From IMG/VR virus record IMGVR_UViG_3300042691_051905: a DNA stretch of 48,826 bases, one strand, 5' to 3'. The notes below the pieces were generated by a model. It worked only from the letters and a program-made list of their open reading frames with translations. It made no database searches and was not told the DNA's origin. Numbering within the stretch: position 1 is the first letter of the stretch; each line of letters opens with the position of its first letter. This document shows positions 38,349 through 39,434 of the stretch, in pieces. Made by a program: the position numbers and the translations under genes. Origin of the DNA: a virus.

Positions 38349-38662
38349 GCGTCACCTTTGAGCGAGGATGCGGAGAGCATGGCTTTCCAGACAGGCCCGA
38401 TGTAACTGGCGGGCAGAGCACCATCCCCCGCGTTGAATAAAGCCGCGTCACCAGCGTCGATCATCGCGTCTGTCGGCTCCTGCAAAGCTTCACGGATAGC
38501 AGTAATCGCGGCGCAGGCGATCATGGCCCGCTCGGGCCAGCACTTCTCAACCAGAAGATCGATAAGATCGTTTGTGTGAAGCCGCCATGGACTGCGCTGC
38601 GCCGAAAGCTCAAGTCTCGTAAGGTCCTTCGCCACCTTCTTGATCAGTTCGTCCTCACTCAT
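38345..38662 (-). CDS. Hypothetical acidic protein
   Basis: 105 aa. RBS GAGGAGAA. Its start overlaps the end of the SerRS-like gene by 8 nt. Confidence 0.55.
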   Translation of the reverse strand: MSEDELIKKVAKDLTRLELSAQRSPWRLHTNDLIDLLVEKCWPERAMIACAAITAIREALQEPTDAMIDAGDAALFNAGDGALPASYIGPVWKAMLSASSLKGDA

Positions 38663-39434
38663 GGCTATTCTCCTCAGTCAAAAAGTGCGCATCGAGCGCG
38701 AGCGTCAGGCGTGGCAGCGCAAGCGCCGAACCGTTGAGCATGTGAACCTTCTCGTTGCGCCCCCGCTCGTTCTTGAAGCGAACCTGTGCGGGGCGGCTTT
38801 GGTTGTCGGTCATGTTCGAGATCGACGAGACCTCAAGCCACTCTCCGTTGACCAGCAATTCGATATCGATCGTGCTCGCGGAAACCGGAGAACGATCCCA
38901 TTCTGGAAGCTCAACCTTGCGATAAGTCAGGCGGGGGAAGAGATCGTCGATCATCCGGCAGACATAGGCGACCATCTCGACGTGCAACGCGGCGCTATGC
39001 TCCGGCCGGCAGATCACAAAGAGTTCGACCTTGTGGAACTGGTGGACCCGCTTCAACCCCTTGTCGCGCTGCCCACCGGCTCCAGCCTCACGGCGGAAGC
39101 ATGGGGAGAACGCGACGTAGCGCAGCGGCAGCGCCTTCGCCGGGATGATCTCATCCGAGTGCATCCCGACAAGCGGCGTCTCTGCGGTCGGAATGGCAAT
39201 CAGCCCATCCTCGGGTATGGTGTAAAACTGACCCTCGAAGCGCGGCAAGATGCCGGCGTGCTCGGCCGTCTTGCGGTTCACCAGATAGGGCGGGATGACG
39301 AAGGTCCAGCCGCGCGCGATGTGATACCCGATCATCCTGTTGATCAGCTCCCACTCGCGGATGGCATCTCCTCCCGTCAGGAAATAGAACTTCGATCCCG
39401 CGACCTTCGCGCCGCGTTCAAAATCAACGGTCAT
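38655..39434 (-). CDS. Seryl-tRNA synthetase paralogue, class II catalytic core only (no N-terminal tRNA-binding arm)
   Basis: 259 aa. Matching segments are [25 protein letters not shown], motif 2 ([30 protein letters not shown]), [24 protein letters not shown], and motif 3 ([17 protein letters not shown]). It is collinear with the catalytic domain of bacterial SerRS. RBS AGGAGAA. Confidence 0.85.
   Translation of the reverse strand: [259 protein letters not shown]

Follow-up and report, generated by a model that had tools for sequence, protein, structure and literature searches.

The 48,826-nucleotide stretch of viral DNA analyzed here (IMG/VR record IMGVR_UViG_3300042691_051905, hereafter the window) carries on its minus strand a gene for a 259-amino-acid (aa) protein that is unambiguously the class II catalytic core of a seryl-tRNA synthetase (SerRS), and that is referred to below as mini-SerRS. 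The protein is a naturally selected, phage-specific SerRS without the coiled-coil arm, and this architecture has a mitochondrial precedent. By analogy with that precedent, mini-SerRS might be a catalytically competent arm-less subunit that pairs with the host SerRS and still serves tRNA-Ser, a reading towards which we lean tentatively. The gene and the features around it are as follows:

38655..39434, minus strand: mini-SerRS gene, 259 aa plus stop codon, a SerRS class II core without the arm, the linker and the C-terminal tail
39442..39446, minus strand: AGGAG Shine-Dalgarno (SD) sequence, 7 nucleotides (nt) 5′ of the ATG and within the end of the upstream open reading frame (ORF), read from the sequence
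39424..40239, minus strand: upstream overlapping ORF, 271 aa, proline-rich, with VTVPSIP three times; operon context only, not a conserved partner
38345..38662, minus strand: downstream overlapping ORF, 105 aa, no family match; operon context only, not a conserved partner

The gene starts with ATG, and its translation contains exactly the peptide segments quoted in a preliminary description of this DNA; the ORF reported there was thus confirmed together with its peptides, although its minus-strand location had been left unstated. Mini-SerRS overlaps the upstream ORF by 11 nt at its start, and its stop codon overlaps the ATG of the downstream ORF (CATGAGTGA), and it is therefore translationally coupled on both sides. 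The GC content at third codon positions (GC3) is 78%, in keeping with a phage of 64.6% GC, and the identical protein was found on at least 24 metagenomic contigs.

The assignment to SerRS is carried by profile, sequence and structure matches. The Pfam family tRNA-synt_2b matches the 259-aa protein with E=4e-30, and the NCBIfam profile TIGR00414 (serS) with E=3.4e-70, aligned over profile positions 152-404 of 418; at 237.2 bits, the score lies below the equivalog cut-off of 301.65, because roughly one third of the profile is unmatched. The methanogen-type profile TIGR00415 (serS_MJ), in contrast, gave E=2.5e-4 over ~90 residues. A search of the PDB sequences returned 29 distinct SerRS sequences (E 1e-51 to 2e-26), always in the C-terminal two thirds of the chain, with the best match being the SerRS 2dq0 (E=1e-51, chain residues 172-419 of 455). 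The AlphaFold model built on an alignment of 39 family sequences reached a mean predicted local distance difference test score (pLDDT) of 88.3 and a predicted template modeling score (pTM) of 0.85, its sole low-confidence segment being the motif 2 loop (residues 116-126), and the top 50 PDB matches found with Foldseek were all SerRS catalytic domains, with the best TMq values at 0.85-0.86. The preliminary description had read the protein as a SerRS reduced to its class II core, and had suggested a profile search and the superposition of a predicted structure on SerRS; the serS profile, the PDB matches and the core alignment bear out that reading, the profile search found the SerRS core and no arm, and the predicted fold agrees with SerRS.

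What has been removed from the protein was defined on an alignment of the 39 family members with 72 full-length SerRS from genomes and metagenomes. Mini-SerRS starts at canonical residue ~148, so that the coiled-coil arm is absent together with ~45 linker residues (canonical ~100-147), which hold the P-N..P.G...N and kpH elements. At the other end, the protein stops 13 residues past the motif 3 helix and is without the ENYQ..DG..P..L tail; the E and Q of this tail show 100% conservation in the 72 canonical sequences. The earlier statement that the N-terminal arm and the C-terminal tail are missing is therefore correct, but the start of the protein does not coincide with the end of the arm, and the further ~45 missing residues had gone unnoticed. 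Hidden Markov models (HMMs) of the canonical N-terminal 148 residues and of full-length SerRS were applied, with every filter disabled, to each stop-to-stop frame in six frames of the 48.8-kb window and of 13 related loci. The N-terminal model detected no arm and no upstream remnant in the window (best E=0.4) or in the 13 loci, and the full-length model detected no second SerRS paralogue in any of them; the best non-self E values in these searches were 0.07-0.47, while 147 canonical controls were recovered. The candidates of a frameshifted serS and of one half of a split gene were therefore both rejected, as no arm and no second paralogue exists in any frame.

The active site, by comparison, is retained in full, and its elements lie at the following positions:

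39279..39314, minus strand: motif 1 region, residues 41-52, with invariant Pro47 and Pro48, from the alignment and the model
39177..39197, minus strand: TxE serine-binding loop, residues 80-86 (IPTAETP), with T82 and E84 invariant in the mini family and in canonical SerRS
39021..39110, minus strand: motif 2, residues 109-138, with R113, E115, G120, G125, R128, H130, Q131, F132, K134 and E136 invariant
38793..38903, minus strand: active-site floor, residues 178-214, with D189 and E191 (D.E strand) and E200, S203, S205, N206 and Q211 (Mg/ATP strand) kept
38697..38747, minus strand: motif 3, residues 230-246, with N233, G234 and S235 (NGS) and R241 invariant

All positions of TxE, motif 2, E..S, NGS and motif 3 that are conserved at ≥90% in the 72 canonical cores are invariant in 39 of the 39 family members, R171 is also invariant, and the motif 2 loop has the length found in canonical SerRS. 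By comparison with the Thermus SerRS complexes, ATP, Mg and the side chain of serine have their ligands among the kept positions. The retention of the motif 2 and motif 3 arginines, claimed from the sequence at the outset, extends to all of these ligand positions, with the alignment, the profile and the PDB matches in agreement. Other canonical elements have been exchanged: GD.gF is replaced by DRSPVS and FQARR by NQS(K/R)P, the W after D.E is lost, the T of HTLNGS and the ENYQ tail are lost, and in the helix before motif 1 (residues 20-39) the canonical L, A and D have given way to the family invariants E26, M33 and H37. Several of the replacement residues are themselves invariant in the mini family, a pattern that points to a remodeled surface rather than to decay.

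Mini-SerRS belongs to a family for which every retrieved context is phage-like. A protein search at 90% clustering showed that the family comprises at least 120 clusters, and the best 120, which were examined, are truncated without exception, share 58-100% identity with the query and are mostly ~245-265 aa long, the longest of a few extended members reaching 344 aa. The 157 SerRS-related ORFs from the scanned loci are bimodal, with the family at ~250 aa and 62-69% identity, and full-length ORFs (~425 aa) that are ≤47% identical and match from residue ~149. When 1.84 billion representatives (50% clustering) were searched exhaustively with HMMER, ~3 family representatives came first, followed by full-length SerRS. 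The neighbor-joining tree of 251 core columns placed the family in one monophyletic group (39/39) on a long stem; the median pairwise identity is 66% within the family (range 56-87%) and 52% among canonical SerRS, while the identity between family and canonical members never exceeds 50%. The start and end points are identical across the family, and the carrier loci range in GC content from 31% to 65% on contigs of 37 kb to ~670 kb, suggesting strong purifying selection on mini-SerRS in phages.

Among 185,579 species-representative genomes, the patterns used recovered no family member; the matches there had ≤46% identity, and the readable ones were full length. The IMG/VR scan with a single sequence gave no match and the profile scan gave three loci, while the metagenome scan added six more family loci and one 3′-partial match (L120; loci are numbered in this way throughout). 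Against 50,697 phage records, megablast with 24 kb of the window found no match, and tblastn found no member of the mini family, all matches being below 60% identity; those at 35-39% identity were annotated as seryl-tRNA synthetase or lay in unannotated records. Matches of ~260-277 aa at 40-45% identity were considered as independent truncated lineages and rejected, since they keep FQARR and the ENYQ tail and are ordinary SerRS fragments cut at the 5′ side.

Truncation at both ends and a score below the serS equivalog cut-off would fit a piece of a cellular serS that the phage had captured and that is decaying or was mis-assembled, yet the family data refute this explanation, to which we assign a negligible chance. 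The start and end points are the same family-wide, the identity to cellular SerRS is ≤47-50% among the 157 sequences compared, no arm remnant exists in any upstream frame, the gene has a proper SD sequence and is translationally coupled, its GC3 fits the phage, and the identical protein recurs on many contigs. The survey of other phages for the same truncated form, which the preliminary description had proposed, yielded at least 120 clusters, with all retrieved contexts phage-like, and its view that the protein is no decaying piece of a host serS agrees with the low identity to any cellular SerRS and with the conserved phage family. It had also known of no described function for such a core in a phage, and full-text literature searches likewise found no description of the mini-SerRS family; the sources that name the protein label it simply 'seryl-tRNA synthetase'.

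A few members depart from the common form. The 398-aa protein P0135 is divergent, with two internal insertions and a C-terminal extension of ~110 aa, and a second divergent member, P0134, has changes beside motif 2 (VRQF, KVERF). The mini-SerRS of L011 and L097 carries a C-terminal extension of ~85 aa with a sub-threshold IF2_N match; for the C-terminal extension of the P0104/P0054 subgroup, an IF2_N-like RNA-binding domain is no more than a candidate, as the Pfam match (E values of 0.012-0.014) is below the cut-off and the PDB sequences gave no support. The BFVD matches to the model also contain a second, unrelated family of 185-217-aa phage proteins resembling class II cores, such as K7QJG2 from Escherichia phage phAPEC8, and phrog_4806 (a 190-position profile labeled 'histidyl tRNA synthetase' in PHROGs) may be the same family as K7QJG2, so stand-alone class II cores may be a wider phage theme.

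Compared with canonical SerRS (TIGR00414; 2dq3 of Aquifex, 2dq0 of Pyrococcus and 1ser of Thermus), mini-SerRS shares the class II fold, ~40-47% core identity, motifs 1-3, TxE, E..S and NGS, and the seryl-adenylate chemistry should therefore be the same. The differences are that the mini form is without residues 1 to ~148 and the last ~25-30, that FQARR, GD.gF and ENYQ are replaced, and that it forms a separate clade; three features of the canonical family, namely the arm, the tail and an equivalog score, are not found in it. The jumbo-phage SerRS of phrog_16140 (Brevundimonas phages Kikimora and Gurke, and Acinetobacter phage MD-2021a) matches the mini protein at profile positions 149-400 of 426, but that profile is full length (426), presumably with the arm, and those phage genes are 35-39% identical. 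Because the SerRS active site is completely conserved, we have high confidence that mini-SerRS would, as a first step, bind ATP, Mg and L-serine and form seryl-adenylate, and the plausibility of adenylate chemistry claimed in the preliminary description stands with these kept ligands.

Stand-alone SerRS-like cores that acylate non-tRNA acceptors are represented by the amino acid:[carrier protein] ligases of Bradyrhizobium and Agrobacterium (Mocibob et al. 2010, cited in PMC9437257), which are of methanogen-type (zinc-dependent) SerRS origin, activate Gly or Ala and adjoin carrier-protein genes. Mini-SerRS differs on each point, being of bacterial type with the serine ligands kept and no carrier protein nearby; a carrier-protein (PP-binding) gene was absent among the Pfam matches of the neighbors in 10 contexts. 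An amino acid:carrier-protein ligase was accordingly rejected as a candidate (3.4e-70 for the bacterial type versus 2.5e-4 for serS_MJ, and no carrier gene), and the likeness to these ligases drawn in the preliminary description fails on the type of SerRS and on the missing carrier protein.

Everything beyond the first step we infer entirely. With moderate confidence, the seryl group would in a second step still be passed to tRNA-Ser. SerRS binds its tRNA across the dimer, with the arm of one subunit serving the active site of the other (PMC10570016), and since the phage provides no arm, pairing with the host SerRS is therefore proposed: the mini subunit would pair with a host SerRS subunit, whose arm would deliver the acceptor end of the tRNA into the phage active site. 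Seryl-tRNA synthesis would in this manner be moved to a phage-supplied site, and the number of productive dimers might be doubled, at the cost of a 780-nt gene. In its most specific form, in which a 250-residue 'active-site cassette', shared by phages that differ widely in size and host, invades the host SerRS dimer by subunit exchange so that the host arm feeds the phage pocket, the proposal is a rather speculative one. If true, subunit exchange would be a viral takeover of a housekeeping aminoacyl-tRNA synthetase (aaRS) at the level of quaternary structure, and the cassette could raise the output of seryl-tRNA, or free it from host control or from defenses targeting SerRS or tRNA-Ser.

The precedent is SerRS2alpha of invertebrate mitochondria, an arm-less catalytic subunit that shows activity only when joined to SLIMP in a heterodimer, for which the SLIMP arm is indispensable (PMC10570016, PMC10817482). 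In the SerRS2alpha/SLIMP pair of insects and other protostomes (PMC10570016), the coiled-coil arm has been lost and the active site kept, as in mini-SerRS. The arm donor there is a co-encoded paralogue, however, and the window and the 13 related loci contain no such paralogue, so the arm donor of mini-SerRS would have to be the host enzyme. The two losses are also independent, the phage protein is in addition without the linker and the C-terminal tail, and a heterodimer is proposed here by analogy. An engineered arm-deletion mutant of E. coli SerRS (PDB 9qof), found among the Foldseek matches, is likewise arm-less, and it still folds and accepts a seryl-adenylate analogue. This laboratory construct of 368 aa keeps the residues flanking the arm, the linker and the tail, whereas the phage form is naturally selected and shorter. 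Charging of tRNA by the arm-deleted E. coli enzyme is said to be crippled.

A link of the family to tRNA is seen in the large contigs. Contigs of 241-673 kb carrying mini-SerRS, two of which come from IMG/VR, are composed of small unknown genes in long runs on one strand, together with tRNA arrays and aaRS genes, and are taken to be jumbo phages or megaphages. In four of these loci (L007, L009, L013 and L096; contigs of 241-622 kb), mini-SerRS lies inside a tRNA array, with 3-4 tRNA-Ser genes at 0.6 to ~6.3 kb from it; all four serine isoacceptors directly follow mini-SerRS in L096, and in the arrays of L007, L009 and L013 most tRNAs are those for Leu, Ser, Tyr and Phe. The tRNA-Ser genes of the phages are of the ordinary type II with long variable arms, an element that SerRS can read only with its coiled-coil arm. 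The synthetases near mini-SerRS in the large-contig loci include full-length TyrRS, GluRS and MetRS, with TyrRS covering positions 32-403 of 406 of the tyrS profile and GluRS and MetRS scoring above their equivalog cut-offs, as well as a 922-aa class I aaRS. As these neighboring synthetases are complete, the shortening concerns SerRS in particular and does not reflect a general minimization. Two further observations were made in these loci: L007 has at 13956-14031 a suppressor tRNA with the anticodon CUA (called tRNA-Pyl by ARAGORN), ~5 kb from mini-SerRS, which suggests possible amber recoding in that phage, and L009, on a 622-kb contig, has at 6757-7926 an IS605 OrfB/TnpB gene (Cas12f-like) within the tRNA array and immediately upstream of mini-SerRS.

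Pairing with the host SerRS is preferred because of the missing phage arm, the armed tRNA-Ser in the large contigs, the canonical motif 2 loop and the aaRS-like gene organization. The preliminary description had held canonical tRNA charging to be implausible, which was too strong in view of cross-dimer binding, the SerRS2alpha precedent (PMC10570016) and the adjacent blocks of tRNA-Ser genes. Several points nevertheless weigh against the pairing. The remodeled helix before motif 1, with L, A and D lost and E26, M33 and H37 gained, could form a self-specific interface. Part of the dimer interface of class II synthetases is formed by the motif 1 helix. The mini form has also given up several residues with 97-100% conservation in canonical SerRS (both R of FQARR, and E and Q of ENYQ), and tRNA charging would be compromised if these contact the tRNA and not the deleted segments. 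Heterodimers would add to the net number of active sites only if a homodimer works with a single site at any moment. The proximity to tRNA-Ser rests on ~4 megaphage-like loci with large tRNA arrays, the contexts of the phages below 55 kb are mostly not translational, and no tRNA genes were found in the stretches scanned of the window phage and of the other phages below 55 kb.

The remodeled helix also bears on another explanation, which is that mini-SerRS is a self-sufficient homodimer that charges tRNA through contacts with the acceptor stem and the discriminator alone, with a relaxed or altered specificity (phage or host tRNA-Ser, or further tRNAs, for example suppressors). A family-specific motif 1 helix fits a dedicated homodimer, the motif 2 loop is conserved, and in L007 the CUA suppressor tRNA is close to the gene. 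Deletion of the arm in E. coli SerRS, however, reportedly abolishes tRNA charging essentially altogether, according to mutant studies of the 1990s. In favor of a homodimer, nematode mitochondrial SerRS2 has lost its arm without any SLIMP partner (PMC10570016); against it, the phage tRNA-Ser keep normal long variable arms, unlike the reduced ones of nematode mitochondria, and the scan of the window phage found no tRNA gene. A homodimer of this kind is therefore considered unlikely.

Conservation of the neighbors was assessed by all-against-all BLASTP of the ORFs within 5 kb at 14 loci. No universal neighbor was found among the 14 loci, and mini-SerRS is therefore regarded as an autonomous module. 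The recurring neighbors are a cpYpsA (SLOG) gene directly upstream in 4 of the 14 loci, which come from two related pairs, and OGFr_N genes in 3 of the 14. The cpYpsA gene overlaps the start of mini-SerRS in one subgroup (L011 7502-8008, L097, L101 and L102); OGFr_N-domain genes lie within a few kb (L007 9882-10406 and L011 4134-4676), and a NADAR gene stands at the end of L011. The two ORFs that overlap mini-SerRS in the window are not conserved beside it in the 13 other loci and have no informative family match, so 39424..40239 and 38345..38662, with which the preliminary description would have begun the search for acylated partners, are poor candidates.

The window itself represents a phage of ~48.5-49 kb that was recovered nearly complete from several metagenomes, and whose genes include an integrase, an S24 repressor, an excisionase-like PrtN, DnaN, SSB, a primase, a methylase and a deoxynucleoside monophosphate (dNMP) kinase. 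In other phage contigs of 37-52 kb, mini-SerRS stands alongside DNA polymerase A, DnaB, GapR, Acb1, PTH2 and similar genes. The 42-kb, 31% GC phage of L178 (positions 1-7000) has mini-SerRS two genes from PTH2 (peptidyl-tRNA hydrolase); the same stretch also holds genes for an AdoMet decarboxylase-like protein, a TilS-like PP-loop ATPase, a deaminase, DnaJ and Acb1, a mixed island of tRNA or translation and anti-defense functions. The setting described initially, an early operon of a temperate phage, is not specific to the gene, which also occurs in contigs of up to ~670 kb taken as megaphages.

These small phages, which have no tRNA genes in the scanned stretches, bring in the main rival explanation, already raised in the preliminary description, namely a tRNA-independent enzyme that would use seryl-adenylate and ATP to make dinucleotides of the diadenosine tetraphosphate (Ap4A) type, or would transfer serine to a protein, a small molecule or a modified nucleic acid. 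It is known that SerRS makes Ap4A. Aminoacyl-tRNA-dependent hypermodification of DNA exists in phages (PMC13219725). Such an enzyme would agree with the loss of the arm, the linker and the tail together and with the lack of an arm elsewhere in the phage, as well as with the replacement of FQARR, ENYQ, GD.gF and W by new invariants (DRSPVS, NQSKP), which suggests a new surface. The coupled cpYpsA gene (SLOG, nucleotide-binding) in 4 of the 14 loci, with OGFr_N, NADAR and Acb1 nearby, is moreover typical of nucleotide-centered conflict systems. Set against this, the family has no acceptor or partner gene in common, and no gene for a carrier protein, a transferase or DNA modification regularly stands beside it; the motif 2 loop, with which SerRS reads the acceptor stem of the tRNA, is of canonical length and SerRS-like in composition; and in the megaphage-like loci the gene is grouped with tRNA-Ser and other aaRS genes. 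A tRNA-independent role is judged somewhat less likely than pairing with the host SerRS.

The position of the gene in a temperate-phage early operon, among small genes of host-takeover type, would also suit a regulatory or poison subunit that binds the host SerRS, tRNA-Ser or a host factor and so would reduce or divert the supply of seryl-tRNA, for example as a trigger of the stringent response or as a toxin decoy, and for which catalysis would be dispensable. SLIMP shows that SerRS paralogues can be non-catalytic (PMC10817482). Pure binding, however, would not need the ATP, Mg and serine ligand positions, all of which are invariant in 39 diverse members, and the PADLOC defense models gave no match. 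This role is judged improbable.

Some further features of the window operon were recorded. At 40464-41077, the minus-strand operon holds three copies of a 31-nt direct repeat (CATCACATCACCTCACGTTC[C/G]GGCTGGGG...), placed precisely where one gene of the series meets the next; read on the coding strand, three ORFs share the ending '...PQPEREVM*' followed by GAGGTGATG, which supplies the SD sequence and the start of the next gene, so the repeat looks like a reused junction cassette for translational coupling. Two small ORFs in the same region (53 aa and 76 aa) both start with M(M)SDTCKTC and look like Cys-rich paralogues. In the upstream ORF 39424-40239, a 21-nt tandem repeat present three times at 40025-40095 encodes the three VTVPSIP units, and the called length of this proline-rich ORF varies (159, 264, 266 or 271 aa) among metagenome copies with an identical mini-SerRS.

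The synthetases of phages tend to be interpreted as nothing more than translation boosters. In the present case the arm-less form has been kept under strong selection from temperate phages of 37 kb to contigs of ~670 kb, while the neighboring phage synthetases are full length, and this says that there is something particular for which phages require a SerRS active site that is itself unable to recognize tRNA-Ser. The current annotation 'seryl-tRNA synthetase' is incomplete for mini-SerRS, which at 259 aa, with a clear active site and a sequence predicted to fold well, offers a compact system. If the route through the host SerRS is true, it would be the first viral hijack of a synthetase at the subunit level, and an independent reinvention of the solution found by insect mitochondrial SerRS2alpha; if the tRNA-free route is true, mini-SerRS would be a new phage enzyme making products derived from seryl-adenylate.

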